Shown: positions 7,937 to 57,610 of the stretch, piece by piece
How the letters are laid out: the number at the start of each line of letters is the position of its first letter
How positions within the stretch are numbered: the stretch's first letter is position 1
Assembly: GCA_041678665.1 (NCBI GenBank)
Contig: JBAYNU010000003.1
Location: 12,008-76,007 of the forward strand
Source of the DNA: Candidatus Magasanikiibacteriota bacterium
GTDB taxonomy: Bacteria > Patescibacteriota > Patescibacteriia > Magasanikbacterales > GWA2-37-8
Reading direction: 5' to 3'
Length of the DNA: 64,000 nt
The notes under the pieces: generated by a model
The model's input: only the letters and a program-made list of their open reading frames with translations
Databases searched by the model: none
Told to the model about the DNA's origin: nothing
Position numbers and translations under genes: made by a program

Positions 7937-7966
7937 CAAATAGGTATTCTTTTAAATGTCGCTATG

Positions 7967-17722: not shown

Positions 17723-17730
17723 TTAACAAC

Positions 17731-17788: not shown

Positions 17789-17802
17789 ATTAAAATAATT
17801 TT

Positions 17803-18207: not shown

Positions 18208-18220
18208 TATTTCATTCAAA

Positions 18221-18250
18221 AAACGGGGTTAAGCATGCCCCGTTTTTTGT
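18221..18250 (+). terminator. Rho-independent terminator after rplL
   Basis: ACGGGG-ttaagcatg-CCCCGT followed by TTTTTTGTT. Confidence 0.8.
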
Positions 18251-18286
18251 TGTCAAAAAGGCGGTAGGGGAGTAAAATACTGGGGT

Positions 18287-18706
18287 ATGCTTTGGCATTT
18301 TATTAAGGTATATTTTTCTACCGGGTTTGTCATGGTTCTAATTGATGTTATTTGGTTGGGTTTTTTTGTTGATAAGTATTATCATCCCAAACTAGAAAAG
18401 GTGGCACGGCAAAATACTGGCAAGTCATTTAGTCCGGTTTGGTACGCTTCGGTCTTGATTTATGTAGTTTTAACTCTCGGAATAGTATTGTTGGTTTTGC
18501 CTCGGGCGTATGGATTATCGGTTTTTGATACTTTTACTATTGGCGCGTTTTATGGTTTAATTGTTTATGGAATATATAACTTGACTAATTATTCCATATT
18601 AAAAGGCATATCTCTAAATTTAGTATTAATTGACATTATTTGGGGTTCAGTACTTTGTGGTGTCGTATCTATGGCTGCAACTTGGTTTAATAATTTTTTT
18701 GTTTAA
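18287..18706 (+). CDS. membrane protein, unknown function
   Basis: 139 aa, 4 TM helices. Confidence 0.4.
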   Translation: MLWHFIKVYFSTGFVMVLIDVIWLGFFVDKYYHPKLEKVARQNTGKSFSPVWYASVLIYVVLTLGIVLLVLPRAYGLSVFDTFTIGAFYGLIVYGIYNLTNYSILKGISLNLVLIDIIWGSVLCGVVSMAATWFNNFFV

Positions 18707-18716
18707 CTTATTTTGT

Positions 18717-19145
18717 ATGACAGATAACAAATTTGAATTGGCCAAGCTTGAATACGAGTTAGTACAAAAACAAGTCGACAAATATGATGATATTTCTTCC
18801 AAAATTAAAACATGGTCAATAACATTGTGGATTGGTATTTTAGGATGGTCATTTCAATCCAAGCGTCACGAGCTATTGTTGCTGGGTATAGTGGCGATTG
18901 TGATTTTTTGGATTTTAGATACGGTAAACAAAAATTTCCGGCAAGATTATCGTGCCAGACGTGAGGACGTTGCCGCTGCCTTACGACAGTTTTCGGAAAG
19001 TAGTAGTTGGCCTAGTAGTTTTTCTACTCCGCAAAATTATACGCACAGATTTAGAGGAATCTTTAAACAGTTATTTATTTTACATTTAACATTGGTCTAT
19101 TTACCTTTGGCATTATTAACTTTGTGGGCTTATTTTAGTTATTAA
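18717..19145 (+). CDS. membrane protein, unknown function
   Basis: Start at ATG 18717 (MTDNKFELAKLEY); 2 TM helices. Confidence 0.35.
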   Translation: MTDNKFELAKLEYELVQKQVDKYDDISSKIKTWSITLWIGILGWSFQSKRHELLLLGIVAIVIFWILDTVNKNFRQDYRARREDVAAALRQFSESSSWPSSFSTPQNYTHRFRGIFKQLFILHLTLVYLPLALLTLWAYFSY

Positions 19146-19199
19146 TTATATTGGTGCGCGTTCATACCTTTGTTTTTGGATTAGTGGGAAATATTATCT

Positions 19200-19988
19200 A
19201 TGTTGCAGGTTTTAAATTTAGTCAAAAAATTTGGTGATTTTATTGCTGTTGACGACATTTCCTTTAACGTTGCCAAGGGAACGATTTTTGCATTTCTTGG
19301 CCCTAATGGCGCAGGTAAATCTACAACTATCAAAATGCTTACCACACTTTTGCATCCGACTAGCGGTCATATGACCATCGCTGGGTTTGACCCCGTGAAA
19401 GACCCGGGCAAAGCGCGGCAGAATTTTGGCATTGTTTTTCAGGACCCAAGTGTGGACGACGAGCTTACTGCCTACGAAAACATGGAATTTCACGGTGTGC
19501 TTTATGGGGTAAAAAAAGAATTGCGTCGCGCGCGTATTGAAGAATTACTTAAAGTGGTTGAGTTATGGGATAGGCGCGACGATTTGGTAAAACATTTTTC
19601 GGGTGGGATGAAACGCCGGCTGGAAATCGCTCGTGGACTTTTGCATCACCCAAAAGTTTTATTTTTAGATGAGCCAACCATTGGTCTTGATCCGCAAACC
19701 CGTAATCATATTTGGGAACATGTTAAAGAGATTAATGAAAAAGAAGGTGTGACAGTATTTTTTACCACTCATTACATGGAGGAAGCCGATCGGGTGGCGC
19801 GCCAAGTGGCGGTAATTGATCACGGAAAAATTATTGCCACTGGTACGCCGGCTGAATTAAAGACCCAAACTCAATCTGCTAATTTAGAAGATGCCTTTAT
19901 TAAGTTAACTGGCAATGCCTTGCGTGCCGAACAAGGGAACGTTTTGGATAATATGCGCATGAATCGTCGTGCCTGGACGCGAAAATAA
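19200..19988 (+). CDS. ABC transporter ATP-binding protein
   Basis: Walker A G-P-N-G-A-G-K-S-T, signature F-S-G-G-M-K-R-R, Walker B L-F-L-D-E-P. Confidence 0.85.
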   Translation: MLQVLNLVKKFGDFIAVDDISFNVAKGTIFAFLGPNGAGKSTTIKMLTTLLHPTSGHMTIAGFDPVKDPGKARQNFGIVFQDPSVDDELTAYENMEFHGVLYGVKKELRRARIEELLKVVELWDRRDDLVKHFSGGMKRRLEIARGLLHHPKVLFLDEPTIGLDPQTRNHIWEHVKEINEKEGVTVFFTTHYMEEADRVARQVAVIDHGKIIATGTPAELKTQTQSANLEDAFIKLTGNALRAEQGNVLDNMRMNRRAWTRK

Positions 19989-19994
19989 ATTTTT

Positions 19995-20741
19995 ATGCGA
20001 GCAATATATATACTCTGGCTAAGACAATTAAAACGATATTTTAGATCCAAGTCGCGTATTATTGGTTCTTTGGGCCAGCCGCTTTTATTTTTAGTCGCTT
20101 TGGGCTTTGGATTTGGTCCGATTTATCAAAAAGCTGGAGCCGGTGACTATATGAGTTTTCTTGCCCCCGGTGTGATCGCCATGAGTGTACTTTTTTCCGC
20201 CACATTTTTTGGTATTGAATTGATTTGGGATAGGCAGTTTGGATTTTTAAAAGAAACTTTGGTAGCGCCAGTATCGCGCCTTAGCATTATGATTGGGCGA
20301 ACACTGGGTGGCGCGACTGTATCGGTTTTACAGGGTATTATTGTTTTAGGCCTAACACTTTTAGTTGGTTTTCGTCCGCACAATCTTATTGAATTGCCAG
20401 TTATGCTTTTGTTTTTAATTTTTATCGCTTTAATATTTACCGCTTTGGGTACGGCGATCGCTTCGTTTTTGGAAGATATGCATGGGTTTCAATTAATCAT
20501 GAATTTTCTTATCATGCCCACCTTCTTTTTGTCGGGGGCTTTGTTTCCGCTTAATGCCGCTCCCCGCGCGCTTTCGATTATTGCCCAGTTTAATCCGCTT
20601 ACTTATGGTGTTGATGGCTTACGTTTGAGTCTTACTGGTATTGGACAGTTTACCATGTCTCATGATATTGTAATTTTAACAGGAGTAACTTTGGTGATTT
20701 TTGCTATAGGCAGTTACTTATTTAATAAAATTCAAGCATAG
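19995..20741 (+). CDS. ABC-2 type transporter permease
   Basis: 248 aa, 6 TM helices, immediately downstream of the ATPase. Confidence 0.7.
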   Translation: MRAIYILWLRQLKRYFRSKSRIIGSLGQPLLFLVALGFGFGPIYQKAGAGDYMSFLAPGVIAMSVLFSATFFGIELIWDRQFGFLKETLVAPVSRLSIMIGRTLGGATVSVLQGIIVLGLTLLVGFRPHNLIELPVMLLFLIFIALIFTALGTAIASFLEDMHGFQLIMNFLIMPTFFLSGALFPLNAAPRALSIIAQFNPLTYGVDGLRLSLTGIGQFTMSHDIVILTGVTLVIFAIGSYLFNKIQA

Positions 20742-20762
20742 ACAAGTATTAATCCAAAAAAT

Positions 20763-21770
20763 ATGTTGAATAAGATTGGTTGGGGAATATTATTGATAGC
20801 GGTTTTAGTTTTGGTGGGTGTGGCTTTTTTTCAAAAATATACCATCGTGCCTCGTTTAGTGGCGCCAAAAGAAGAGGCTTTGATTGATACGGTCCAAACA
20901 GTGGTTTCTTCTACCAGCCCGATAGCTACCCCTGTCGCCGTTCAGTTGATCTCTTTGGATATTGGCGAAGAAACTGCGTCTTATACTATCAAAGTATTTT
21001 ATCCGGCCATGATTGGAGGAGAAGAAAAGATTAGAAACAGTTTTAACGCGGAGATTAAAACTTTGGCGGAAGGAATGGTAGTTAATTTTAAAGAAGCTTC
21101 TCTAGACGCCGTTTCATCTACCGACAGCAAAAATTTTCTAACCGGAGCATATGATGTCAAAGAACAGAATGATAATTTTATCAGTATATTTTTAAGCGGC
21201 GAACAATACGTTGCTGGCGCGGCTCATCCCAGCCATTCTGTGGCTGTGTTTAATTTTAATTTAAAGACTGGCCAGATTATCAAACTTAAAGATTTATTTG
21301 TTGCTGACGCTAAATATTTGGAAGTTTTGTCCAATTATTGCAAAAAAGAATTATTGGTGCGTAATGGCGAAGAGGAATTTACTAATCGAGAAAACATTCA
21401 GTCAGGTACTCTAGCCAAAGAAGATTTGTATGATGTGTTCAGTATTACTTTGAGCGGGCTTGTAGTTATTTTTCCAGAGTATCAAGTGGCGCCTTATGTG
21501 GCCGGAGCACAGATGGTGACAGTGCCGTGGTCTGATCTAAAAGAAATTATTGACGTGAACGGTCCAGTGGCGATCTATTTACCGGCAGAGAAGGTGAGCA
21601 CCGCTACCAGCGCCTCTTCACCCCAGCTTATTGGTGGACAAAAAGATGAGCATGGTTGTTTAGTTGGCGCGGGTTATTCTTGGTGCCCTTCTACCAACAA
21701 GTGTCAGCGTATGTGGGAAGAGTATTGTGTCGAATACAAAGATATTTTTCGTAGTTCTACAAAAAAATAA
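20763..21770 (+). CDS. membrane-anchored secreted protein, unknown function
   Basis: N-terminal TM anchor, C-terminal Cys-rich tail (C-L-V-G-A-G-Y-S-W-C-P-S-T-N-K-C). Confidence 0.4.
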   Translation: MLNKIGWGILLIAVLVLVGVAFFQKYTIVPRLVAPKEEALIDTVQTVVSSTSPIATPVAVQLISLDIGEETASYTIKVFYPAMIGGEEKIRNSFNAEIKTLAEGMVVNFKEASLDAVSSTDSKNFLTGAYDVKEQNDNFISIFLSGEQYVAGAAHPSHSVAVFNFNLKTGQIIKLKDLFVADAKYLEVLSNYCKKELLVRNGEEEFTNRENIQSGTLAKEDLYDVFSITLSGLVVIFPEYQVAPYVAGAQMVTVPWSDLKEIIDVNGPVAIYLPAEKVSTATSASSPQLIGGQKDEHGCLVGAGYSWCPSTNKCQRMWEEYCVEYKDIFRSSTKK

Positions 21771-37232: not shown

Positions 37233-39335
37233 ATGAAAATGAATATGAAACAAAAAAATATTACCATTATTGAAGAACCAAACGTGATAGATGACCATTT
37301 ATTAGATATTATCGGCAACGAATTTAAGTTCGACCACGAAAAAGGAATTGCAGAGTGGATAAAAAATTCAAAAGACGCATATACAAGGTCCGACTTGCCG
37401 GATTCAGAACAAAACATAATATTACGCTTTGTAGACGGAAAACAAGACGACGCTGCTTTTGAATGTATTGATTTTGTTGGTATGAGTGATACGGATATTG
37501 ATAAAGCATTTAAGAGATGGGGTGACCCGGAAGCTGCAAAACGTGGTTTGAAAAAGAGAGTATATGGCGGTCACGGAAATGGCGGAAAATTTTATATGCG
37601 CCAGATGTTTGAGAAATCTCATTTTGTAACCTATAAAGACGGCAAGATCAACATTTTTGGTTTTAATGAAAACCGTAAATACGGTTTCGCTGACGGTTTT
37701 AAGAATAAGAAAGCCAACCCCAAAGAAGCATTTTCTATTGCTAATATCGAAGACTTAAATTTTCCCAAGGGAGTCAAAGAACAGATTGTGGAAGGTAAGA
37801 TTGGTTTTACCGTGGTTAGAGGAATCGGTCCGTCAAAAATGAAAAATAATATTAAATTTGATAAGTTGGTTGAAAAATTAAAAAATCATCCGCAGGCGCG
37901 TCGCATATTAATTCGAATTAGTGTATGGGCCAGCCACAATAATTTTTCTGACGCTACACTTCTTAAACCCGACGACATTAAACCGCTTCCAAATTTTGAA
38001 AAGCCGTATTTTGTTGAAATACCGTCGGTTATTGAGATAATTGAAAGCGGAGAGAAAAATTCGGTAGAAATGGCAAATGCAAAATATCAAGTTGGAAATT
38101 TGGTGTTAAAAACTTCCGAAGAGGCATTCGGTAAGGGCAGCCGGGTAGCCGATCTGAACAGGGTTGATATAATAGGTGAGGTAGGAGTTATAGCTTCATA
38201 TCAATTTTTTGAATTGGGGGTGACCGCATTCCCGCAAGCTTCATTTATTTATGGTGAATGTGAGTGTCCGATATTGGAAGATTCTGAAATGGACGCCGTA
38301 AAGAACGATCGCTCAAAACTTGTAGAAAATAATGTGCGTGCGGTTGCTCTCTTGGGTTGGTTGAGGGAGCAAGTTGATAAATACGCAAACTCAATTGCCG
38401 CATTGGAGAAAAAAGAACAAGAGGTTCAACGAAGACAAATATCGGCTGCTTATAATGATTTTTTGAATAAATGGAAAGATAGGTTTATGTCCAAATTTAT
38501 GGGAGATTTATTCAAAAGCGGCGGTGGTGCTGGCGGCGGAAATAACGATGAGGGAGGGGTTAAGAGAAAAATATTAGAATTACCCAAGGATGGTTTTGCT
38601 TTTAGTTATCCCTATGCTGAAATACAAAATAGCCTTGAAGAGAGGATCACGTTAAAAGCGTCCGTCCCTAATCCAATTCCGCTCGGAAGTATTATAAAAA
38701 TAGAGGCGTCTTCAAATAATATCATCGTTAGTGAACAAAAAATTACAATAAAAGCGGAAAATATAAAAACAACGCCGTCCGGAGACACGGTTGCAGTTAT
38801 AAACTTTATTGTTATTGGTAAAAAAGTTGGAGAAGAGGCGCAACTTATCGCTACCGTCGGTAAATTAAGCACCGAAATGACCGTTAAAACCATTGAAGCT
38901 ACGGGGAAAGATAAAGGTAAGAACCCTAAAACTCCGCAAGTTTTGCTCTCGGGAATACACCCGGATCCATTAATGATAAATCCCGGGGAACAATCGGTTA
39001 TATTGTCCGAACGTGATCCGTTAGTTTACCAACGGTATCAGGATGTGCAAGAAGGGATTTATTGGATCAATACGCAAAGTCCTTTGGCCAAGGCGATACT
39101 TGATAGATATACTGATAATTCAATAAGATGGCGGGATTATCTTTTTCAAAGATATGTTGACATTTTTGTCAAACAAATGCTGCACGAATTGCAAAAAAGA
39201 GATTCGGAAAATTTTCGAGCAGATAGGGTCGACAGCGAACTGGATGAATTAACAAGAAAAGTCCATTTTGCGGCCATTAACGACCTCAACCAATTTTTCT
39301 TTGAGGAAGACTTTACGCCGGTCGAAAAATTATGA
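37233..39335 (+). CDS. GHKL-type (histidine kinase/HSP90/MORC-like) ATPase domain protein
   Basis: N-box E-W-I-K-N-S-K-D-A, G1 I-D-F-V-G-M-S, G2 G-G-H-G-N-G-G-K within first 130 aa; 700 aa total; remainder unassigned. Confidence 0.55.
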   Translation: MKMNMKQKNITIIEEPNVIDDHLLDIIGNEFKFDHEKGIAEWIKNSKDAYTRSDLPDSEQNIILRFVDGKQDDAAFECIDFVGMSDTDIDKAFKRWGDPEAAKRGLKKRVYGGHGNGGKFYMRQMFEKSHFVTYKDGKINIFGFNENRKYGFADGFKNKKANPKEAFSIANIEDLNFPKGVKEQIVEGKIGFTVVRGIGPSKMKNNIKFDKLVEKLKNHPQARRILIRISVWASHNNFSDATLLKPDDIKPLPNFEKPYFVEIPSVIEIIESGEKNSVEMANAKYQVGNLVLKTSEEAFGKGSRVADLNRVDIIGEVGVIASYQFFELGVTAFPQASFIYGECECPILEDSEMDAVKNDRSKLVENNVRAVALLGWLREQVDKYANSIAALEKKEQEVQRRQISAAYNDFLNKWKDRFMSKFMGDLFKSGGGAGGGNNDEGGVKRKILELPKDGFAFSYPYAEIQNSLEERITLKASVPNPIPLGSIIKIEASSNNIIVSEQKITIKAENIKTTPSGDTVAVINFIVIGKKVGEEAQLIATVGKLSTEMTVKTIEATGKDKGKNPKTPQVLLSGIHPDPLMINPGEQSVILSERDPLVYQRYQDVQEGIYWINTQSPLAKAILDRYTDNSIRWRDYLFQRYVDIFVKQMLHELQKRDSENFRADRVDSELDELTRKVHFAAINDLNQFFFEEDFTPVEKL

Positions 39336-40423
39336 ATTTTGAAGGAAACATAATAAACATCGTCTGTGAAAATTACGGGGTTAACAAAGAGGCCGTTTTT
39401 GCACAGGACAGGCAACAAAACATTGCGGAAGTCAGGATGGTTCTTGCCTATTGTTTAAGGTTGGTTGAAAATTTATCTTTTCCGGCAATAGGAAAAATTA
39501 TCGGTAATAGGGATCACACCACGATGATGCACTCTTGTAGTAGGATTGCCAAAAAAATTGAACAAGACAAAAAATTTGCCGTCAGAATCAAATTAATTAT
39601 CGATAAGATTTTGGCTAATAGATATAATGAGGTAGCCAAACCAAAAGTTAATCCGATAGAAATTAATATTGGTGAAGATGAAGAAGAGTCAGAACCAGAA
39701 CCAGATTTGAATTATTATGTGGTGCCTTATGAAAATGAAAAGTTAGAATTATCAGATAGAGAAAGGGGTATTTTAATACGATATCGAAACGGCGAAACTC
39801 TGAGAAAAATAGGTCAAACGGAAAAAGTCACGACACAGCGTATTAGCCAAATAATCATCAAAGCGGTTACCAAGGAAGTTAAAGCAAAAATAAGGGAGGG
39901 ATTTGATATTGATATTGAAGAATCTATAAAAGGCGAAAAAATTGCTCATAATTTTAATTTATCTAAAAAAATATCTGACGAAGATGTTAGAAAACTTACC
40001 CCGGAATTTATATTAAGAGTTGGCAGCGGCACCCAAATAAAAGCCTTGGCAAAAGAAGTCGGACTGTCGGTATCAAAATTTAATAAATTCTTCCCCGAAG
40101 TGTTAGAAGAAGCCGATAATAAAAAAAGACGAGAAAAACAACGATGGACAAAATATTATATTAGTTGTAGGGGGTGCGGAACCACCAAAATACCACACGT
40201 AAAAAAAGGGTATTGTGAGCAATGCCTTGGTGTTTTTCGCGGGAAGAGAAGAGATTCGGTATTGAAGAATAAAAATAAATGCGAAGTATGTAGTATTGAA
40301 CGCGGGAAAGCGATACAAAAGTATAAGAAAGATTTCTATATTACTAAGGACGGACGGGTATTGTGTCGCAATTGTTTTTTACAATTAACCGGCGATAAGC
40401 TTGCGTCAAGCAGGTGGAAATAA
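39332..40423 (+). CDS. DnaA C-terminal (domain IV)-like DNA-binding protein with sigma-70 region-4-like HTH and C-terminal zinc ribbons
   Basis: N-terminal matches DnaA domain IV (L-x-x-x-S-F-P-A-I-G-K-I-I-G-N-R-D-H-T-T-M-M-H-S-C-S-R-I); E-T-L-R-K-I-G-Q-T-E-K-V-T-T-Q-R-I-S-Q-I HTH; C-R-G-C-G ... C-E-Q-C ... C-E-V-C ... C-R-N-C; start overlaps upstream stop (ATGA). Confidence 0.55.
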   Translation: MNFEGNIINIVCENYGVNKEAVFAQDRQQNIAEVRMVLAYCLRLVENLSFPAIGKIIGNRDHTTMMHSCSRIAKKIEQDKKFAVRIKLIIDKILANRYNEVAKPKVNPIEINIGEDEEESEPEPDLNYYVVPYENEKLELSDRERGILIRYRNGETLRKIGQTEKVTTQRISQIIIKAVTKEVKAKIREGFDIDIEESIKGEKIAHNFNLSKKISDEDVRKLTPEFILRVGSGTQIKALAKEVGLSVSKFNKFFPEVLEEADNKKRREKQRWTKYYISCRGCGTTKIPHVKKGYCEQCLGVFRGKRRDSVLKNKNKCEVCSIERGKAIQKYKKDFYITKDGRVLCRNCFLQLTGDKLASSRWK

Positions 40424-40434
40424 ATCGAAATAAA

Positions 40435-41394
40435 TTAATGATTTGCCCCTGTTTCAAGTATTTTACGCACTTTCTTAGCGACTGCCGCAGCCACATTTAC
40501 GGTTACGGCATTACCCAATTGCTGATACGCTCTGGTTATAGAAACAGGCCACTTGTATTTTTCAGGAAACCCTTGTAACCGCGCACATTCCTTAACCGTC
40601 ATTCTTCTAATCCCAAATTTATTTTTCTTAACCGGCCTGTCTTTTATTAAGTTCCTTTCACGGCCCATATTCCCCGCTACCAATGTATTAGAGATGCCAC
40701 CAACATCCAAGATTTGACATCCAAATCCGCTGCCTTTTTTCTCGTGCCGTTTTTTGTGTTTAAGTAAACCCTTGTAGTATTTTTGTGACAGATAATAGAA
40801 TTCATCAATGTCTTTTTCTAAGATGTCAGAAAGAGCAACCGGTTTACAATGGGGTTTAGGGAATTCAAAATCTATACTGTGATCCAAAAAACCAACTATA
40901 TATAGCCGTTCTCTGTGCTGCGGAACGCCAAAGTTTTTCGAATCTAATACGGCTTCTTTTACGCGATACCCGGCCCACTCCAAGTTTTGTTTTAGTCGTT
41001 CATATACCTTGCCCTTGTCATAAAGGCGAAGGTGTTTAACATTTTCTAAAACAAAAGCCCGCGGTTGTTTTGCGGCCAAAATTCGGATGATATGAAAAAA
41101 CGCTTTGGCGCGATCATCGTTAAGCCCTTTTCGTTTCCCTATCATTGAAAATGGCTGGCAGGGAAAGCCGCCCAATAAAATATCAAAATCTGGTATAATA
41201 TCGGTATTGATATTCTTTATGTCATTTTGATCAATGTCACCAAAATTAGCCCTGTATGTCTTACAAGCGTTCGGATCCAAGTCGTTTGAGTAAACAACCT
41301 GAAATCCAGCCTTTTCAAATCCCATCCTCATACCCCCGATTCCGGCGAATAGATCAATGACTTTGAATTTGTTTTTTTTGTTATTTTTCCCCAT
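40435..41394 (-). CDS. DNA (cytosine-5)-methyltransferase
   Basis: Motif I F-A-G-I-G-G, motif IV G-F-P-C-Q-P-F-S, motif VI E-N-V-K-H-L. Confidence 0.8.
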   Translation of the reverse strand: MGKNNKKNKFKVIDLFAGIGGMRMGFEKAGFQVVYSNDLDPNACKTYRANFGDIDQNDIKNINTDIIPDFDILLGGFPCQPFSMIGKRKGLNDDRAKAFFHIIRILAAKQPRAFVLENVKHLRLYDKGKVYERLKQNLEWAGYRVKEAVLDSKNFGVPQHRERLYIVGFLDHSIDFEFPKPHCKPVALSDILEKDIDEFYYLSQKYYKGLLKHKKRHEKKGSGFGCQILDVGGISNTLVAGNMGRERNLIKDRPVKKNKFGIRRMTVKECARLQGFPEKYKWPVSITRAYQQLGNAVTVNVAAAVAKKVRKILETGANH

Positions 41395-41442
41395 AAAACC
41401 TGTTGAACAGTTTGATTATATCATAGATTGTAATTTTAGTAT

Positions 41443-47001: not shown

Positions 47002-47016
47002 GAATTATGAACAAAT

Positions 47017-47048
47017 TAAAATCACCACCTTATAGGTGGTGATTTTAA
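47017..47048 (+). terminator. perfect hairpin terminator
   Basis: AAAATCACCACC-ttat-AGGTGGTGATTTT. Confidence 0.6.
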
Positions 47049-47049
47049 T

Positions 47050-47162
47050 TTGTTCACTACTTTTGAAAAAATACGAACCGATTTTACCGAAAATTAATTG
47101 GGCGGGCGGAAGGAAGGGGTGTGGGGAGGGAATTCCGCCCGCCCACCGTGGCCCTGTTCGGA
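47050..47162 (+). repeat. 113-bp inverted repeat, left copy (IR-L)
   Basis: Identical to reverse complement of 50777-50889; contains internal 12-bp-stem hairpin GGGCGGGCGGAA ... TTCCGCCCGCCC. Confidence 0.85.
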
Positions 47163-47196
47163 CTGACGATTTCAAGTTTTTCACGAGATACCGTAG

Positions 47197-47898
47197 TTAT
47201 TTTTTTCCTGTATTTTTGAAACTTTTGAAAAAGTCACGAAATTTGATAATTTTTGGTGCCATGTCGTGGTTAATAGAAAAAATGGCATGTGTAAATATAT
47301 TTGTAAGCTCAGCACGGTTAGATATCTCATTCTTCCAATCTTCACACCATTCTTTAAATTCTTTTTTGCTTTTTTTGATCGGCCTATTCTGCGGTCTTAA
47401 ATAGTGATCAAAATTAATATTATAATATAATTTATGTGTCAGAGTATTTCTTTCCTCAATAATTTTTTTGAGGTTCTTATTTGTCTCGAATTTTTTTATC
47501 GTGGATAACAACTTCGCTTGTTTAATAAAAGGATGATTAATAACATTTTTGATGTTTATATCATTTCCATTATAATTCAGTGGTAATATTTCATTCAAAA
47601 ATAACAACATCTTTTCTCTAAAACAATAAGCACGAAAACAGTAGTTCTCATAATGATAAACAAAATTAACGAGAGCATCGAATACATCTGGTGGGTGAGG
47701 GACAAAGCCGTTGCGCGTGTGTATTGATTTAATATTGAAAATACAAATTTGCGCACCGTGTTGCACTTGTTTATTAGTATAAACCAGCGTGTTCATCATC
47801 CTAATCATTTCTTTTAAACACTCCTTTGCCTTTGTATTTCTCGGAAAGTATTTTTTTGGAATATCTTGAATATGTATACAGTTGCTTTTTTTGGCCAT
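47197..47898 (-). CDS. hypothetical protein with HEPN-like R-x4-H motif
   Basis: 233 aa; E-R-N-T-L-T-H matches Rx4-6H; last gene of the cassette operon. Confidence 0.35.
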   Translation of the reverse strand: MAKKSNCIHIQDIPKKYFPRNTKAKECLKEMIRMMNTLVYTNKQVQHGAQICIFNIKSIHTRNGFVPHPPDVFDALVNFVYHYENYCFRAYCFREKMLLFLNEILPLNYNGNDINIKNVINHPFIKQAKLLSTIKKFETNKNLKKIIEERNTLTHKLYYNINFDHYLRPQNRPIKKSKKEFKEWCEDWKNEISNRAELTNIFTHAIFSINHDMAPKIIKFRDFFKSFKNTGKK

Positions 47899-47907
47899 AT
47901 ATTCAAT

Positions 47908-48672
47908 CTATTTGATTATAAACTTACCAGCTTTCACAAGTTTTATGCTATTATAATCGTTTACATCTTCAAATTTAAACTCCCAAATTGAATAGATATT
48001 TTCTTTGTCATCTTTATCAAAAAATAACGTGACGACCCTCTTTTTTGTATGTATTTGCCATTGTCTAAATGGATAGTATAGCTGGCGAATAATTACATTA
48101 TTTGCACTAAAATTTTTTGCTTCGATTAAAACTATTTGATCTTTGCCTTCGTAACCAGCATCAACTTCGGTCTGCACACTGGACACTTTAATTAACTGCT
48201 TGCCAACATAAAATTCGAAATCCGGTGTGTACTTCCGCCCTCGAATAGTAAGTACTAAACTTGGATCATCCATAAATGTTCGTATCAAACTTGCTGCATA
48301 GGCGTAATCCAAGTGTTGCATTTCAGAATTACCAATAAAAGATGAGTCAAGATGAAAGTTCAACTTACTATCGTAGATAGTAACACCAGTTTTAATTTTT
48401 GGTATACTAACATATCCCTCACCTTTAATAATGTCGTAATAGCCATTTTTTGTTGGTAATAAAAATAAACCGTTGTCTCTAAAAATTTTAGGACGATCTT
48501 CTCTGGTGTCTTGTTTACATAGAATACGCACCTCCTTTTCTGCTGTCTCCTTAAATCTTTGACAAGATTTTTTAATTTGGCCGGCCGATAACGGAAATGG
48601 CCCCTTATTAAAATTGTGCTTGATAATATCGTAGTCCTTAAATATTTTTTCCCAAGAACGAGAGTTTGCCAT
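47908..48672 (-). CDS. putative type II restriction endonuclease (PD-(D/E)xK-like)
   Basis: T-P-D-F-E-F ... I-E-A-K motif; downstream of beta-class MTase in same operon; start at internal ATG with AAGGA-like RBS (ORF-track start 48702 overlaps MTase by 26 nt). Confidence 0.45.
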   Translation of the reverse strand: MANSRSWEKIFKDYDIIKHNFNKGPFPLSAGQIKKSCQRFKETAEKEVRILCKQDTREDRPKIFRDNGLFLLPTKNGYYDIIKGEGYVSIPKIKTGVTIYDSKLNFHLDSSFIGNSEMQHLDYAYAASLIRTFMDDPSLVLTIRGRKYTPDFEFYVGKQLIKVSSVQTEVDAGYEGKDQIVLIEAKNFSANNVIIRQLYYPFRQWQIHTKKRVVTLFFDKDDKENIYSIWEFKFEDVNDYNSIKLVKAGKFIIK

Positions 48673-48676
48673 ATTT

Positions 48677-49468
48677 TTATAGTAATCCTTTTTTAATGTC
48701 ATTATAACGTTTGATAGATAAATCCAAATATTTTTTTTCTAAATCAATGCCGACAAACTTTCGGCCATTCAGTACGGCCGCCAATCCGGTAGTTGATGAG
48801 CCAGTAAAAGGATCTAATACAATATCTCCTTTATCAGTACTGGCCATAATAATACGTACAAGCAAATCAATTGGTTTTTGTGTAGGATGTTTGCCGTGAA
48901 TTTTTTCTTCTTTTTTGGGAGGATAAATAGCCCAAACGCTGCGCATTTGTAAATTTGGCTTTTTAATAAAATCCTCCGGCCAACTGCCGTTTTTCATGTC
49001 GTGATAATTGAACTTATGTTTTGCTTTTTTATCTTTGCGGGCCCAAATAAGCGTTTCATGGCTGGCGGTGAAAAATCGGCAACTTAAATTTGGCGAAGCA
49101 TTTGGTTTAAACCACGCAATATCGTTCAAAATGTGAAATTTTTCTGCTTGTAAAGCGAATCCACATTGGTAAATTGAGTGATAGGTTCCGCTGACCCAAA
49201 TAGTGCCGCTGGGTTTTAAAACTCGTTGGCACGCCCTGATCCAAGATAGTTGGAATTCAAAATCTTTTTTCAGACCATTACTCACATCCCATTCGCCTTT
49301 ATTTACACTTACCATTTTTCCGGCGTGTAGTGTAAAACCGCCGTTCGACAACAAATAAGGTGGATCGGCAAAGATCATGTCCACATAATTTTCCGGCAAC
49401 TTCGCTAAATAATCTATGCAGTTAGCGTGATATAATTTAAAATTTTGTCCAGAAAAATATGGCTTCAT
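48677..49468 (-). CDS. beta-class amino DNA methyltransferase (N6-adenine or N4-cytosine)
   Basis: N-terminal motif IV F-A-D-P-P-Y, C-terminal motif I V-L-D-P-F-T-G-S-S-T-T-G (IV before I = beta class). Confidence 0.8.
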   Translation of the reverse strand: MKPYFSGQNFKLYHANCIDYLAKLPENYVDMIFADPPYLLSNGGFTLHAGKMVSVNKGEWDVSNGLKKDFEFQLSWIRACQRVLKPSGTIWVSGTYHSIYQCGFALQAEKFHILNDIAWFKPNASPNLSCRFFTASHETLIWARKDKKAKHKFNYHDMKNGSWPEDFIKKPNLQMRSVWAIYPPKKEEKIHGKHPTQKPIDLLVRIIMASTDKGDIVLDPFTGSSTTGLAAVLNGRKFVGIDLEKKYLDLSIKRYNDIKKGLL

Positions 49469-49471
49469 AAC

Positions 49472-50392
49472 TTATTTAAAAAGTTTTTCGTGTATCTGCT
49501 TTACTAAAAATATGGCATAATCGATATCGTTTGCCGTTGTTATCGTGGTCATGCAATTGCGACCGTAACCGCGTTCTTCCCATGGCGTATCGACAACCTT
49601 GTTTTCAGGGTCTTTTAAGTCCTTTTTTTCGACGCGCACTAAACACAGATCCAATTTAGATTTGTATATATTAATCGCACATAGATTGTTTGTTCCGATT
49701 TTAAAAGCGACATAATTGCGATTAATTTTTATAATTATGCGACTATCTATACTCATGATTCTTTCCTTGATGTCATCGTAGATATTCGCGGAATTGTGCC
49801 AATCACTTTTGATCAAATCATCAATGGTGTATTTTTTAATTTCTTTACCAACATTTTCGATAGTTTTATTTTTAGAAACTGTTTTTATTGATTCACTTGT
49901 ATCGGGCGACTTCAATTGATTGAAAAGCACCAAATCATTGCTAAATTTTTTCACCTCCCACAATTCAATTGGCAAATCTTTAAAATTTATTGCATTCTGT
50001 TGGTAAGTAGTAAAAGAATTTGCTAAAAATAAGACCCTTGATTGTGACCAGTCAACATCCTCTCTTTTTAAACTCTTCCCTGTCTTTTCATTATATTCTA
50101 ATATAAAATCTGCTTTATTGTTTAACATCAAGGATAGGTAGGCATATCCCTGATCGATTACACTGAAACTCCTATCGCGTTTGAATTCTATTATTACGAA
50201 TGAATTGTTTTCTTCGTCAAAAGCCAATGTATCAATGCGGAAGTTATGTAAACTAAATTCAGAGCTAATAAATTTTACATCAAATACCAGCTCCAAATTG
50301 ATTTCGGTCAAATTTTGTATATCTTTTTCTAAATCTATTTGTAATTCTTTTACGGTTACTAATTTTTGATTTTCAATTTTAAAAATTGACAT
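49472..50392 (-). CDS. hypothetical protein with N-terminal PD-(D/E)xK nuclease-like motif
   Basis: D-T-L-A-F-D ... I-I-E-F-K-R-D pattern; 306 aa; 4 nt after the C-protein gene. Confidence 0.35.
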   Translation of the reverse strand: MSIFKIENQKLVTVKELQIDLEKDIQNLTEINLELVFDVKFISSEFSLHNFRIDTLAFDEENNSFVIIEFKRDRSFSVIDQGYAYLSLMLNNKADFILEYNEKTGKSLKREDVDWSQSRVLFLANSFTTYQQNAINFKDLPIELWEVKKFSNDLVLFNQLKSPDTSESIKTVSKNKTIENVGKEIKKYTIDDLIKSDWHNSANIYDDIKERIMSIDSRIIIKINRNYVAFKIGTNNLCAINIYKSKLDLCLVRVEKKDLKDPENKVVDTPWEERGYGRNCMTTITTANDIDYAIFLVKQIHEKLFK

Positions 50393-50396
50393 AAAA

Positions 50397-50621
50397 TTAT
50401 TTTATCAATTCATCAATACTTATTTCCAATCCCGCGGCGATTTTAACCACGGTTTGTATTGATGGCTTGGTAATGACATTTGATTCAATCTTTGTCAGTG
50501 TGGCATAGGGGATATCACATTTGCGAGCCAATTTATCCTGTGTTAATCCTTGTTTTAATCGCAATTTTTGGATTTTGTCCCCAATGGTCTCGCCTTGCTT
50601 TTTACTTTTTCCACTATCCAT
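50397..50621 (-). CDS. XRE-family HTH controller (C-protein-like) of the R-M operon
   Basis: 75 aa from ATG 50621 (MDSGKSKK...), Q-x-x-L-A-R-K-C-D-I-P-Y-A-T-L-T-K-I-E HTH; upstream ORF-track extension is translated IR. Confidence 0.6.
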   Translation of the reverse strand: MDSGKSKKQGETIGDKIQKLRLKQGLTQDKLARKCDIPYATLTKIESNVITKPSIQTVVKIAAGLEISIDELIK

Positions 50622-50726
50622 AGTATAATAGTATAGTTCGGAAAGTATATGTCGGTTCCCAACTGTGTATATTTTACCACGGTTCGCCAAACCAATCAAT
50701 ATCGAAAAGAAAAGTTTGCTTTTGGC

Positions 50727-50961
50727 CAAAACAAAGTTCGAGCCGACATTTTTACGGGTTCTTTGGCGGTTTTTTATCCGAACAGGGCCACGGTGGGCGG
50801 GCGGAATTCCCTCCCCACACCCCTTCCTTCCGCCCGCCCAATTAATTTTCGGTAAAATCGGTTCGTATTTTTTCAAAAGTAGTGAACAACGTTGGACAGG
50901 TCGGGTTTTCGGCCAAAATTCGCCAGCCCCTTTTCGCTAAAAATTCGATTTTTTTACCTTG
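50727..50961 (-). repeat. inverted duplicate of LSR 3' end/att region, split by IR-R
   Basis: 50727-50753 = revcomp of 52349-52375; 50884-50961 = revcomp of 52376-52453 (1 mismatch); 130 bp (24 bp + IR-R) lie between the two parts. Confidence 0.8.
50777..50889 (-). repeat. 113-bp inverted repeat, right copy (IR-R)
   Basis: Reverse complement identical to 47050-47162. Confidence 0.85.
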
Positions 50962-51013
50962 TCGTGGACACACGACGCCAAAAGCAAACTTTTCTTTTTT
51001 AATCGTTTATCGT

Positions 51014-52462
51014 ATGGCCAAATATATTCTCTACGCTCGCAAATCCACCGATGAGGAAGAAAGACAAGTATTGTCCATTGAAGCCCAACTGGCCGAGTTG
51101 CGCGAATTCGCCCAAAAGGAAAAACTTGAAATCGTCGCCTCGCTGTGCGAGGCAAAAACCGCCAAAGAACCCGGCCGAACCGTGTTCGGCGAAATGTTAT
51201 CCCGGATTTCCGCCGGTGAAGCCGATGGTATTTTGGCTTGGCATCCCGACCGCCTTGCTCGCAATCCAATAGACGGCGGGCAAGTGGTATATATGGTGGA
51301 CACGGGTAAAATAAATTCCCTCAAATTTCCGACTTTTTGGTTCGAAAACACTCCGCAGGGTAAATTTATGCTTAACATTGCTTTTGGCCAAAGTAAATAT
51401 TTCATAGATAACTTAAGCGAGAATATTAAACGAGGGCTAAGGCAAAAACTGCGCAGGGGTGAATGGCCCAGTTATGCTCCCGTTGGATATTTAAATGATC
51501 CCATCAGTAGAAATATTATCGTGGATAAAACCAAAAGCAATTATGTTAAGCAATTATTTGAAATGTACGCGACCGGAGAATACACTCTTTTGCAACTAAA
51601 AGAATATTTTGAAAAAGCGGGATTGGTAAGTCAAACAGGAAAAGTGTTGAGAGTTAGTAATATCCAGTATATTCTCCAGCGTTCAATTTACTGCGGAGTG
51701 TTTAAATATGGCGGCGAAATGTACGAAGGCAAACACGAGCCAATAATCACCAAGAAACTTTTTGACGATGTGCAAGCAGTTATGCGGAACAAAGGGCGAC
51801 CACACAATAAGAAAAATCATGAATATATCTTTGCCAGCAATCTGTTCAATTGTTCCTGTGGCTGTTGCATAACTGCTGAACGACAAAAGGGCCATGTGTA
51901 TTACCGCTGTACCAAAAAGAAAGGGCCCTGCGATGAAAAATATATCCGCGAGGAACTGTTGACCACGGAATTGCAGGCCCTTTTGCAAAAAGTTTCTTTG
52001 TCCGATGATTGGGCCGAAAAAATGCTCGAAATGTTGGATAATGAGAAACAAACCAAGGCCCAATCATCGTCTGCCCTTGTTCAATCGTTAGAGAGCCAAT
52101 TAGAGGCCGTAAAACAGAAGCTGGATAAACTGCTCGACGCCCATTTGGAGGGTACGATAGACAAAGCCATCTACCTCAAAAAGAAAGAGCAGTTTATCTC
52201 GCTGAAAGTCACCCTTGAAGAGCAAATTAAAGAAATTTTGAACAAGGGCACCAATTGGCTCGAACCGATGAGGGAATTTATTTTATCCAGTTGTAGAGCC
52301 AAAAAAATCGCCTTCAAAGGCGATCTGGCGGAAATCCGTACATTTCTCAAAAATGTCGGCTCGAACTTTGTTTTGAAAGGCAAAAAAATCGAATTTTTAG
52401 CGAAAAGGGGCTGGCGAATTTTGGCCGAAAACCCGACCTGTCCAACGTTGTTCCGAGACTAG
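51014..52462 (+). CDS. large serine recombinase (integrase/invertase candidate)
   Basis: Y-A-R-K-S-T-D-E-E-E-R-Q catalytic motif, recombinase domain, zinc ribbon C-S-C-G-C-C ... C-T-K-K-K-G-P-C; start at ATG 51014; last 4 codons overlap tRNA-Gln(CUG). Confidence 0.8.
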   Translation: MAKYILYARKSTDEEERQVLSIEAQLAELREFAQKEKLEIVASLCEAKTAKEPGRTVFGEMLSRISAGEADGILAWHPDRLARNPIDGGQVVYMVDTGKINSLKFPTFWFENTPQGKFMLNIAFGQSKYFIDNLSENIKRGLRQKLRRGEWPSYAPVGYLNDPISRNIIVDKTKSNYVKQLFEMYATGEYTLLQLKEYFEKAGLVSQTGKVLRVSNIQYILQRSIYCGVFKYGGEMYEGKHEPIITKKLFDDVQAVMRNKGRPHNKKNHEYIFASNLFNCSCGCCITAERQKGHVYYRCTKKKGPCDEKYIREELLTTELQALLQKVSLSDDWAEKMLEMLDNEKQTKAQSSSALVQSLESQLEAVKQKLDKLLDAHLEGTIDKAIYLKKKEQFISLKVTLEEQIKEILNKGTNWLEPMREFILSSCRAKKIAFKGDLAEIRTFLKNVGSNFVLKGKKIEFLAKRGWRILAENPTCPTLFRD

Positions 52463-52521
52463 GATTCGAACCTAGATAACGAGATTCAGAGTCTCGTGTC
52501 CTACCATTAGACGATCTCGGA
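52451..52521 (-). tRNA. tRNA-Gln (anticodon CUG)
   Basis: Reverse complement: acceptor TCCGAGA/TCTCGGA, anticodon stem CGAGA/TCTCG with loop CTCTGAA, T-loop TTCGAAT. Confidence 0.7.
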
Positions 52522-54959: not shown

Positions 54960-55054
54960 ACATTTTTGTCATTGTAAACCCCTAAAGGGGAGAAATAATT
55001 CCGGTGTATTAGGAATACAGGGTGATTGTTTGGTCACTTTATTTTTTGATAATC

Positions 55055-57610
55055 TTACAAGCTTGCTTCACTTAAGTCTATTTCCGCTGATTTTCCAACG
55101 GTGCCCAATTGCGAGTGTTCCATAATTTCGGCCTCTACTATTTCTTTAGGACGGCCATATTTGAGGCGTGATAATTCTTTGATTGCGGCCGCTAATTCTT
55201 TGTTGCCTTTTTGTGGCGGATAGGTCATCATATCAAATGGTTTGCAAGCAGTATTATTAATTAGAAGTTTAATGTAAGCGGTATATTGTTCCACATTAAC
55301 TAAATCATGAGCGTTAAATACCGGCATAAATTCTTTTTGTAAAATTTCGGCATCTTCGGGGCCAATTCGGAAACTGACAATCGTACCGGCGTTACCAATC
55401 ACAGCGTCACGGACGGTATTTTTACCTTTGTTGTCTATTAATTGCCCCATATATTGATGGGCTATAATTAAATCCAAACGATATTTGCGCGCTTCGGATA
55501 GAATTGTGGCGATAGAGTCGGTGATAAAATTTTGGAACTCATCAATATATAAATAAAAATCATGGCGCTCATCTTCGGGTAGAGACGCCCGTTCCATAGC
55601 GGCCATTTGTAGCTTTGACACGATAATCATGCCAAGCATGTTAGAGTTGATTTCACCTACGAGACCTTTGGCCAAATTTACTAAAAGGATTTTTTTCTTG
55701 TCCATTACTTCACGAAAATTAAAACCGGAACGTGATTGGCCAATAATATTACGCATCATTGAATTTTCCACAAAGCGGCCAACTTTGGAAATTAAATATC
55801 CCAGCATCTCTGATTTATGGAAATCGGATGTTTTGGCCATTTCTTTATCCCAAAAAGCCATTACCACCGGATCTTTAAGTTTCTTTTTCCAACCAGCTAC
55901 GAATGTGTCATCAGTAAACATGCGAGGAATTTCGGCAATGGTACCCGGGTTTTCCAGGTCAGACATAAGAGTCAACATTACGTTGCGCATATTATGTTCG
56001 AACATCGGACCAATCATGGATGGGTCGGTAACCATTTTATAAAACATGGAAATCATTTCTTGGGTGGCAAAATCTTTTTGTTCTTCGGTATGAACTTCCA
56101 ACATGTTTAAGCCCACCGGTCGGTCGGTGTCGGAAGGATTAAAATAAATTACATCATCAGCGCGTTCTTTGGGTACGTGTTGTAAAACATATTCTACAAA
56201 ATCACCGTGTGGATCAACCACACAAAGACCTTCGCCGTTAATTACGTCTTGTACGGCCATATTCTGAATAAATACTGATTTACCCACACCGGATTTACCG
56301 ATTGTATAAAGGTGACGACGGCGATCCGGCTTACTCATTCGTACTATTACTTCTTCTCCGCGGTATATCGAACGACCAAGCATAATACCTTCTTTGGGCA
56401 TGTCTATTGGTGGCGGAGCTTTGCGTGCTCCCAGCCAATTGATGCGAGGTGTTTCAGTGTTGGGGTTTGGCATATGCCAAAAAGAAGCCATCTCTTCGGT
56501 GTTCATTACCATATATTTTCCTTCGTGGAAAGAGCGGAAGATTGACTCGCGAATCAAGTTGGCCGGTCGACTGGGAACCGAAGCGGCGAAAGAGTTGCCA
56601 TAACGGTAAATATTATATTGACCGTAGGCATTGATGATATTTTGTAAGTTCATTACCGCTTTTGCTTTAGTACTGGCGGAACTTATTAGGCGAATGGTTA
56701 ATTCTAGACCGCCGTGGCTTATTTTTTCTTCCATGCTTTTTACCATTTCTTCTTCCATTTGAGTAAGGCGGTAAGCTTCACCAAAGCCACCCTGATTAGA
56801 GGCGTCTTTGTGTTTGGGAAACATAATGCGTTTCCAACGATAGATTCCACGAGTAAGCCAGCCGCGTTGAGCTACATATTCAAATTTTTGTCCTTCACGG
56901 ATGTCACGAATCATCCTTACTCCTTGTCGGCGCCACTTGGGCGATGCCGGACGAATTATATATTGGATGACCGCGCCTTCGTCTTCGGCAACTCTACTTA
57001 ATGGATTAAGCAAAGATAGCAAGGGATCACTTTCCATTTTTTTGTAAGTTTTGAAAGGAAAAGCTGGTCGGAATTGACTGAATAGGTAGGCTCCCACAAT
57101 ATGGCTTTGTGGTTTAAAAATATTATAATCAATTTCTTCGGTAATTTCGGCATGTGGGTACTGGGCGTGTATTTGTTGTCCGATAAAATCTTTAAATTTA
57201 TCAGGAATAGCAACATAAAAACAAATCTTACCATCGCGTACCACAATTTCAAAAGACAAGTGATCGTTGCGTCCTCTAAACCAAGAAATAATTCCGCTTT
57301 CACGTTTTAGCCCGGCTATTGCAGCAAATAAAGTATCAGCTACTGCAATTATTTCGCGGGTAAGATTAATATTGTCTTGGTTCATCATGTTGGGATTTTC
57401 GTTCTTTTTTTCTTTAGGTACCTTAATAAGCAAAATAGTGCGATGAAATGCTTTGCTAGTTCGGGTGCGGGCGCGCAAGAAGCCGCGTATCATAAATAGA
57501 ACAATGATAAAAATTAACATTCCAACGGCGTAAAGAAGTACATCAAACATAACGGGATATTGTGATAACCAGTTGAAGAAAATTTTTAGCAAATTGATTA
57601 AATCAGTCAT
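55055..57610 (-). CDS. membrane-anchored P-loop ATPase of FtsK/HerA/VirB4 superfamily (VirB4/TraC-like candidate)
   Basis: N-terminal TM helix, Walker A G-K-S-G-V-G-K-S at about aa 440, Walker B Y-I-D-E-F-Q-N-F at about aa 690; 851 aa. Confidence 0.45.
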   Translation of the reverse strand: MTDLINLLKIFFNWLSQYPVMFDVLLYAVGMLIFIIVLFMIRGFLRARTRTSKAFHRTILLIKVPKEKKNENPNMMNQDNINLTREIIAVADTLFAAIAGLKRESGIISWFRGRNDHLSFEIVVRDGKICFYVAIPDKFKDFIGQQIHAQYPHAEITEEIDYNIFKPQSHIVGAYLFSQFRPAFPFKTYKKMESDPLLSLLNPLSRVAEDEGAVIQYIIRPASPKWRRQGVRMIRDIREGQKFEYVAQRGWLTRGIYRWKRIMFPKHKDASNQGGFGEAYRLTQMEEEMVKSMEEKISHGGLELTIRLISSASTKAKAVMNLQNIINAYGQYNIYRYGNSFAASVPSRPANLIRESIFRSFHEGKYMVMNTEEMASFWHMPNPNTETPRINWLGARKAPPPIDMPKEGIMLGRSIYRGEEVIVRMSKPDRRRHLYTIGKSGVGKSVFIQNMAVQDVINGEGLCVVDPHGDFVEYVLQHVPKERADDVIYFNPSDTDRPVGLNMLEVHTEEQKDFATQEMISMFYKMVTDPSMIGPMFEHNMRNVMLTLMSDLENPGTIAEIPRMFTDDTFVAGWKKKLKDPVVMAFWDKEMAKTSDFHKSEMLGYLISKVGRFVENSMMRNIIGQSRSGFNFREVMDKKKILLVNLAKGLVGEINSNMLGMIIVSKLQMAAMERASLPEDERHDFYLYIDEFQNFITDSIATILSEARKYRLDLIIAHQYMGQLIDNKGKNTVRDAVIGNAGTIVSFRIGPEDAEILQKEFMPVFNAHDLVNVEQYTAYIKLLINNTACKPFDMMTYPPQKGNKELAAAIKELSRLKYGRPKEIVEAEIMEHSQLGTVGKSAEIDLSEASL

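Follow-up and report, generated by a model that had tools for sequence, protein, structure and literature searches.

Large serine recombinase (LSR) elements and prophages such as A118/LI, phiC31 and Bxb1 have in common a recombinase with Resolvase, recombinase and zinc-ribbon/coiled-coil domains, a short core shared by the recombining sites, a recognition motif that lies 5 bp nearer the crossover in attB than in attP, and an attP located beside the recombinase gene. The same features are found at the locus described here, a putative LSR integrative element carrying a type II restriction-modification (R-M) module. It lies in a stretch of 64,000 nucleotides (the window) of contig JBAYNU010000003.1 from a Candidatus Magasanikiibacteriota bacterium (assembly GCA_041678665.1); all coordinates are those of the window, and features are on its plus strand unless the minus strand is indicated. 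Unlike in the systems just named, attP is present twice, in inverted orientation and with arms of 77-330 nt that are ~99% identical; moreover, the P arm coincides with the 3' end of the recombinase open reading frame (ORF), the targets are tRNA 3' ends, and the elements, which can be as small as ~2.5 kb, lack phage genes and any recognisable directionality factor.

Other well-characterized systems resemble the locus in part. Like SCCmec (staphylococcal cassette chromosome, SCC, mobilized by ccrAB or ccrC), it belongs to non-phage, non-conjugative islands that are mobilized by LSRs and reside at the 3' end of one conserved gene; in both, the cargo is modular, and tandem or composite arrays as well as remnants without a recombinase occur (compare loci L015, L049 and L178 below). 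It differs from SCC, which targets rlmH, in having a single recombinase, tRNA targets and an internal inverted att copy; in addition, the recombinase scores only 93, 63 and 41 bits against the NCBIfam CcrB/CcrA/CcrC models, the cut-offs of which are 900, 700 and 900. Tn4451 and Tn5397 are small elements in which one LSR (TnpX or TndX) is thought to both excise and insert the DNA without an accessory factor, and the window element may be alike in this respect. However, their targets are GA dinucleotides, with no preference for tRNA genes, and they lack a long, perfect inverted copy of the joint in their interior. The yeast 2-micron plasmid with its FLP recombinase, like other replicons of two segments and two long perfect inverted repeats, offers another parallel: the window element, if circular, would consist of unique cargo and recombinase segments split by a ~184-bp inverted-repeat pair containing the recombination site, and isomers exist; the differences are that the present recombinase is a serine enzyme, that no origin is known and that one repeat copy is split by integration. 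Finally, the res site between tnpA and tnpR of Tn3/gamma-delta is a serine-recombinase site in a divergent promoter region, where binding could repress both genes (by analogy only); res, unlike the site described here, resolves direct repeats, works with a small resolvase and has three subsites. To our knowledge, the tiny genomes of candidate phyla radiation (CPR) bacteria, or Patescibacteria, contain few recognised mobile elements, and no vehicle has been described for their abundant R-M genes. In literature searches, neither the element family nor a duplicated inverted attP nor the patch mosaic presented below was found described; the family is thus apparently undescribed, LSR integrative elements and R-M systems on mobile DNA both being well known.

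The locus is organized by two pairs of inverted repeats. An earlier note on this DNA, made from the sequence alone, had drawn attention to 113-bp perfect inverted repeats, and these are indeed exact reverse complements: 47050-47162 (IR-L, arm A) and 50777-50889 (IR-R, arm A') are 113 nt each, 100% complementary and 3614 nt apart. A second pair, absent from that note, brackets the LSR gene: arm B' (Y', 50884-50960), which repeats the final 77 nt of the LSR ORF in inverted orientation, matches arm B (Y, 52377-52453) over 77 nt at 99%. The 6-nt core TTGTTC/GAACAA is common to all three junctions, namely 47050-47055 (the direct-repeat copy at attL, whose hexamer also ends arm B), 52448-52453 and, inverted, 50884-50889, where A' and B' overlap by GAACAA. 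Because the core is shared at the arm junctions, 50777-50960 corresponds to the reverse complement of the junction B.A of a circular form. The complete order is flank | A - cargo - A'.B' - LSR - B | tRNA, where the tRNA is tRNA-Gln(CTG) (52450-52521, minus strand), the integration target, which overlaps arm B by 4 nt. On the opposite side, the last 6-7 nt of the terminator hairpin of the upstream DUF6938 gene (47008-47056, 23-bp stem; presumed left half of attB) are the crossover core. An Rfam search of the region returned only tRNAs and chance microRNA matches on this host terminator.

We put at about 0.78 the probability of our overall reading, an integrative element inserted by its LSR. In this reading the mobile unit is 47050-52453 (5.4 kb), consisting of cargo, central non-coding region and LSR, and resides at the 3' end of tRNA-Gln(CTG); the 113-bp repeats are two copies of the P' arm of attP, one at the end of the element and one in the central inverted attP. 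Consequently, the 'transposable defence cassette' of the earlier note holds as far as mobility is concerned, but not in its extent, since the unit is not the 3.7-kb segment bounded by the repeats and includes the LSR gene. Each arm contains a hairpin, as had also been noted, although its GC-rich stem (GGGCGGGCGGAAT/ATTCCGCCCGCCC, with a 21-nt loop) measures 13 bp and not 12 bp. Related elements have kept the stem and the G-rich loop (47100-47144 in arm A); in the window the hairpin core is found exactly twice, against 0 copies expected by chance. A function of this hairpin as an intrinsic terminator was considered and rejected: the T-run found downstream of it in the window is missing in the related loci L004 and L008 (L numbers designate surveyed loci).

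The nature of the half-sites was deduced from the position of one motif. A conserved motif resembling a T-arm, AAATCGGTTCGAAT in the direction of the core, is present in arm A; the CGAAC of this motif starts 18 nt from the core, and the CGAAC in the T-arm of the tRNA starts 13 nt from it. When measured on right half-sites only (arm A versus tRNA), this shift was exactly +5 bp in 42 out of 44 loci (27/28 in a first set and 15/16 in a second). Rutherford et al. reported that serine integrases recognise the same zinc-ribbon-domain (ZD) motif in both sites, but with its position in attB 5 bp nearer the crossover than its position in attP (PMC3783163). The shift therefore marks arm A as an attP-type (P') half-site, the tRNA as an attB-type half-site and the central A'.B' as a complete attP. 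It is mainly on this basis that the locus was assigned to the LSR integrative elements instead of being regarded as an invertase switch.

The gene immediately outside IR-R had been described as that of a large serine recombinase, and domain matches bear this out (Resolvase PF00239, 1e-20; Recombinase PF07508, 1e-14). It codes for a 482-amino acid protein (51014-52462) whose start codon is the ATG at 51014 rather than the GTG at 50882, with the N-terminus MAKYILYARKSTDEE. The Zn_ribbon_recom domain (PF13408) scored 21.7 bits, under the 25.3 cut-off, and is annotated in most homologues. Residues 163-382 match the C-terminal domain of the A118 integrase; similarity to solved integrases reaches only E~1e-4. 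The ORF passes through arm B and stops 9 nt past the core, within the tRNA gene, which lies on the other strand (...PTLFRD*). In a circular form it would continue into arm A (...PTLFTTFEKIRTDFTEN*); the read-through past the core being different, the C-terminus of the LSR would differ between the integrated and the excised state. Promoter scans between B' and the LSR ATG revealed no good promoter, such scans being too unspecific in AT-rich DNA to locate the LSR promoter. The coding region also contains a perfect 13-15-nt inverted repeat, AAGAAACTTTTTG/CAAAAAGTTTCTT (51749-51781/51969-52001), which encodes KKLF and QKVS. It is kept in L123 (1144-1158 and 1383-1397), whose LSR is 56% identical to that of the window, and the L123 gene has three more perfect 16-18-nt inverted repeats inside it.

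Between the repeats, the five minus-strand genes previously listed were confirmed by profile matches and motifs, and so was their reading as a type II R-M module accompanied by additional defence-type genes, since both methyltransferase and endonuclease profiles were matched. The first gene of the operon codes for a 75-amino acid XRE-type helix-turn-helix (HTH) protein of the HTH_3 type (50397-50624, minus strand). It is followed by that of a 306-amino acid DUF5655 protein (49472-50392, minus), a candidate defence protein matching PADLOC PDC-S18 over its full length (1e-106) and with a weakly NucS_C-like N-terminus; by that of a beta-class, CcrM-like N6/N4 DNA methyltransferase (48677-49468, minus; PF01555, 6e-56; PADLOC MTase_II, 5e-95), in which DPPY precedes the FxGxG-type motif FTGSSTTG; by that of a putative type II restriction endonuclease with DUF6996 and DUF6997 (47908-48702, minus; PADLOC REase_II, 8e-34); and by that of a 233-amino acid HEPN_Cthe2314 protein with the motif RNTLTH (47197-47898, minus). 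From its similarity to CcrM, the methyltransferase may act on a GANTC-type site. A promoter-like site of this operon, TTGATT-17-TAAAAT with TG, is located at 50671-50699 on the minus strand (a consensus match only). Also as noted earlier, two ORFs that run through the repeats, 47036-47404 (plus) and 50397-50876 (minus), share 32 residues, KKYEPILPKINWAGGRKGCGEGIPPAHRGPVR, and are spurious.

The operon had also been called C-protein-controlled. That an HTH gene heads it stands; that the protein is a dedicated R-M controller is plausible but unproven, because the same HTH subfamily is found with both R-M and non-R-M cargo. The match to PADLOC Control_protein is only 3e-8, that to HTH_VI being 2e-11, and members of the subfamily occupy the same position at the head of cargo without R-M genes (multicopper oxidase and flavodoxin genes). 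Classical C-protein-like HTH proteins, together with C-box-like repeats, were found in L004, L008, L059 and L079; a convincing C-box was not found in the window, C-box-like repeats being present in L004 and L008. Judging from these sequence comparisons, the small HTH protein is probably the backbone regulator of the element rather than a dedicated R-M C protein.

The distribution of the architecture was analysed among 80 loci from GTDB species representatives and 80 loci from Joint Genome Institute (JGI) metagenomes, with LSR identities of 51-70%. Homologues of the LSR number >7,700 at E<1e-20, and at least 575 loci were counted in GTDB species representatives. The layout A..cargo..A'.B'-LSR-B is complete in 68 loci (39 including the window, plus 29) among ~165 loci with LSR homologues; the overlap between A' and B' is 1-10 nt in most complete loci, usually 4-7 nt, and arm B reaches ~5 nt into the 3' end of a tRNA gene of convergent orientation. 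The tRNA targets, of at least a dozen types, are those for Gln, Ser, Asn, Trp, Leu, Arg, Glu, Tyr, Met, Val, Ala and Lys. The nearest homologues on long contigs (L002, L004-7 and L008; 73-84% identity) have the same layout with perfect or near-perfect A/A' and B'/B pairs and abut tRNA-Gln (L002-7) or tRNA-Asn (L008). Their cargo is wholly different: an EcoRI-type methylase with GmrSD/HNH; a Dam methylase with a 277-amino acid partner plus CHAP, ThsB-TIR and DUF4231 proteins; or ScaI with a LexA-fused methylase. Across the family, cargo sizes lie between 0.6 and 8.5 kb. When 130 cargo ORFs were assigned to Pfam families, small HTH proteins, DNA methylases and restriction components predominated; among the single-gene cargos, which are mutually unrelated, are radical SAM enzymes, FAD oxidoreductases, a multicopper oxidase and proteins without known function. 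The LSR is the sole protein conserved across the elements. Only 3 matches were obtained among 2.9 million viral contigs, and the family is not phage. The metagenome-assembled genome records with family members are overwhelmingly labelled Patescibacteria. Extra arm-A-like copies occur in series in L015 (3201-3304, 4152-4237 and 6352-6483), a complete B.A is present at the left end of L049, and in L072 an A-type arm replaces the tRNA after B; by analogy with composite SCC arrays, these suggest tandem accretion at one site.

In addition to the arms, short segments of the LSR region are repeated in inverted orientation around the cargo. Z' (50705-50726) is a perfect inverted copy of Z (50977-50998), an A/T-rich element located 16 nt upstream of the LSR start; X' (50727-50753) is a perfect inverted copy of LSR nt 1336-1362 (52349-52375), 20' (50755-50774) of LSR nt 141-160 (51154-51173) and, next to arm A, s106' (47165-47182) of LSR nt 106-123 (51119-51136). 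The Z sequence is thus also found just upstream of the -35 of the cargo operon, in the same orientation relative to the gene. Patches Z', X', 20' and s106' occur in the same order in ~70 'type 1' loci, and an equivalent of s106' is present in 54 out of the 68 complete loci. Another ~25 loci ('type 2') display the order A'-B'-s1333-s1288-s361-s266-ATG, collinear with the inverted LSR gene up to the start codon; if the element is drawn as a circle minus the LSR unit, the type-1 patches are also collinear with the inverted LSR gene. Patches are from 12 to 81 nt long and their sequences differ between loci, each tracking its own LSR gene, including synonymous changes (four-locus comparison). They coincide with the most conserved protein motifs of the LSR. 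The core of X, GGC TCG AAC, which contains CGAAC, has a synonymous-codon identity of 92-100% versus 54% gene-wide. Divergence between repeats is ~1% in every class, including A/A', which cannot share one transcript, and the mismatches (57 that are G:U-compatible on the plus strand against 51 on the minus strand, and 59 transversions) show no wobble bias. Neither a single inversion nor one LSR-mediated insertion could be made to yield the type-1 order. The explanation that we prefer, on sequence grounds, is that patches and arms would be the remnants of an inverted LSR/attP duplicate that was deleted and permuted and survived where homogenized; patches might alternatively be accessory LSR binding sites. 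Between B' and Z lies a small hairpin, hp (50961-50976, GTCGTG-gaca-CACGAC). In its equivalents (L002, L004, L008, L009, L042 and L112) the stem sequence changes completely while pairing is kept, and the loop is TTCG in L004 and L008; these changes indicate a structural element, in DNA or in RNA.

In the integration cycle that we propose, the LSR would insert a circle by attP x attB recombination at the 3' end of the tRNA gene, with crossover within TTGTTC; that the LSR itself catalyses this step is inferred. In the integrated state, attL contains arm A as its P' half-site and attR contains arm B as its P half-site; 50777-50960 is a second complete attP, inverted, between the LSR gene and the divergent cargo operon. 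This internal attP would probably bind the LSR as well, and could act as an LSR operator or as an alternative integration site. The cargo is an exchangeable module, represented here by the HTH regulator, PDC-S18, the methyltransferase, the restriction endonuclease and the HEPN protein. Arms and patches would be kept identical by DNA-level gene conversion or template switching.

A few loci were integrated through the other attP. In L123 the order is tRNA-Leu(+)|B'-LSR(+)-X-B.A-cargo(-)-A', as predicted for integration via the promoter-side attP, each of the two modules being inverted with respect to the outer junctions; L173, with tRNA-Asn(+)|B'-LSR, is similar. In P0115 (L009-L013) the LSR is fused in frame to the XRE HTH protein in a 559-amino acid product, on 7 contigs, and the locus order is tRNA-Ser|B'-hp-Z-LSR-X-Z-HTH-cargo. 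The fusion results from X lying before Z and the HTH gene in the rearranged element. As read from this order, the P0115 locus would be an L123-type isomer, or a derivative of one, after deletion between two direct X copies. L009 also has a second, partial LSR located between 147-nt perfect repeats and adjoining a second tRNA-Ser.

Several observations weigh against this interpretation. Neither an empty attB nor a circular junction was recovered: the predicted empty junction, GGTGATTTTAATTTGTTCCGAGACTAGGATTCGAA, had 0 matches in JGI metagenomes, and short patterns are unable to tell the circular junction from the internal copy. An excision or directionality factor was not identified in the elements, although such factors are diverse and one may have been missed. 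At 77-330 nt, the arms greatly exceed the ~25 bp of an LSR half-site, and therefore protein binding alone does not explain their length or near-identity. The left (P-arm) half-site has no clear dyad partner for the CGAAC motif, and the recombinase activity of the LSR is putative. Finally, if both attP copies were equivalent, standard and alternative loci would be expected at parity; only ~3 other-attP loci were found versus ~100 determinable standard loci (~30:1), indicating that the two copies are not equally used.

The earlier note had also suggested an invertible cassette. In a phase-variable arrangement of this kind, the LSR or homologous recombination would flip the 3.7-kb segment and turn R-M on or off. 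Perfect 113-bp inverted repeats with an adjacent recombinase, an architecture that is closed under inversion and the reorientation of the LSR segment relative to the tRNA in L123, L173 and L009 all agree with this proposal, and phase-variable R-M invertons and shufflons likewise have inverted repeats and a recombinase beside R-M genes (PMC7672463). In invertons, however, the repeats are located within hsdS or around promoters and both orientations coexist, whereas here the whole operon and its promoter are between the repeats and one orientation is dominant across the family. Since the promoter-like site at 50671-50699 lies with the HTH gene inside the repeat-bounded segment, inversion would not uncouple the operon from its promoter. 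A flip of the cargo only was not found in any of the 68 complete loci: in type 1, Z', X' and 20' are central and s106' is at the far end. Of these loci, 52 have every cargo gene on the minus strand, 8 have every one on the plus strand and 8 are mixed; in the plus-strand loci checked (L061 and L093) the patches are still central. Furthermore, recombination between attL and attP is not a reaction of canonical LSRs, the adjacent tRNA and the 5-bp displacement of the motif favour integration, and the 129-kb contig was assembled straight across the repeats. Inversion of the cassette thus appears improbable, and related loci give no support to it. The other alternative raised in that note, a composite in which two copies of a 113-bp multicopy miniature inverted-repeat transposable element (MITE) happen to bracket an R-M cassette, would account for perfect arms with a hairpin in each. 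However, just two arm copies are present in 64 kb, the arm is always paired with an LSR centre in the 67 other complete loci, its outer end has a tRNA-type crossover core and an attP-type motif, and arm sequences co-vary with their own LSR element; we regard this proposal as refuted, its probability being very low. Least probable of all, and close to negligible, is a chimeric or fold-back join of the metagenome assembly. Perfect repeats often arise from mis-joins, and the contig is a MEGAHIT k141 product, but the 113-nt repeat is shorter than k. The same architecture is present in >60 independent assemblies from varied projects and assemblers, including the complete chromosome CP174360.1, and this cargo is also found on an independent Logan contig (SRR6484787), which breaks off 30 nt inside the repeat.

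A different kind of explanation is that repeats and patches are nucleic-acid pairing devices. In an RNA version, the leader of transcripts starting upstream of Z' would pair with the start and coding region of the LSR mRNA and silence the recombinase; in a DNA version, operating on single-stranded DNA (ssDNA) that has been taken up, the central A'.B' would splint both termini and allow precise circularization without an excisionase. The centre is contiguously complementary to both ends of the element, the arms are much longer than LSR sites, the LSR is the only conserved protein, and in type-2 centres the patches are nested and follow the order of the coding sequence as far as its start codon. 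When folded as RNA, the centre closes on Z':Z (z = -5.6), and the lack of a good promoter between B' and the ATG would also fit. For uptake, a recent preprint reports that CPR bacteria carry ComEC competence genes and type IV secretion systems (T4SS) without relaxases. The mismatches, however, show no excess of G:U-compatible pairs on either strand, type-1 pairings cross and cannot coexist in one fold, and the promoter scan upstream of the mosaic was barely above shuffles. Altogether we consider pairing devices unlikely. A little less likely still is the splint taken by itself, i.e. that the internal A'.B' is a built-in splint which pairs with both termini in ssDNA during natural transformation or T4SS-type transfer. 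If it were true, the termini would be aligned for flap removal and ligation, giving a precise circle with attP and no need of an excisionase, and each cycle would homogenize the arms; it would represent a new mobilization strategy combining a recombinase with a fold, and would explain how cassettes of a single gene to 9 genes spread with one LSR to tRNA sites across CPR.

Returning to integration by the LSR as the preferred reading, its left boundary can be compared with the same site in close relatives. In L178 the C39 peptidase is 82% identical to that of the window, and synteny extends to the genes on either side. Present at the site is a solo arm A with an identity of 90-98% to the window arm, against only ~72% for the host flanks, and this step of identity at the outer end of arm A supports the boundary at 47050. 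The site also contains two unknown ORFs and no LSR, and a ~35-nt stub after tRNA-Gln resembles the B' of related elements, most closely that of L004. A clean empty site was not found in the two closest genomes, identified via the C39 peptidase: L178 is a decayed element and L179 is ambiguous. In L178 the solo arm A is interrupted (12340-12420) by a 75-nt perfect palindrome, TTGCTTCGCTCGCTCGGAAATGAAAATTAATTTTCATTTCCGAGCGAGCGAAGCAA, which may be a small mobile palindromic element. Further along, past ABC/FtsX genes, L178 has an HTH-led R-M module (16858-20822) with a HaeII-type endonuclease, a RadC-fused C5 methylase and a PDDEXK_1 protein, which suggests several defence cassettes per genome in the lineage of the window and L178.

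If the preferred reading is correct, the family provides a concrete route for the exchange of defence and metabolic genes in CPR, by means of minimal elements made of one serine integrase and an exchangeable cassette docked at tRNA ends. It also constitutes a large natural set of integrase/att pairs in which both attP and attB are readable, and hence raw material for genome-engineering integrases. The second inverted attP and the patch mosaic fall outside the textbook serine-integrase cycle and may reveal a mode of excision without a known directionality factor.

Three other loci of the window deserve mention. At ~55000-57600 (L001 19377-21323) lies the gene of a ~850-amino acid VirD4/TraG-like coupling protein with DUF8128 and TrwB_AAD_bind domains; it is apparently a conserved chromosomal and not a mobile gene, because it is found beside dnaX in the related genomes L002, L004, L178 and L179. 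At 7853-7937 ARAGORN predicted an 85-nt 'tRNA-???' with a two-base anticodon (tg), which may contain an intron or be otherwise atypical, as reported for Patescibacteria. At 39300-41400 (L001 3654-5716) a C5 DNA methylase gene (PF00145) adjoins genes for a DnaA C-terminal-domain protein and an HhH-GPD glycosylase, a context that is unrelated to the LSR element.

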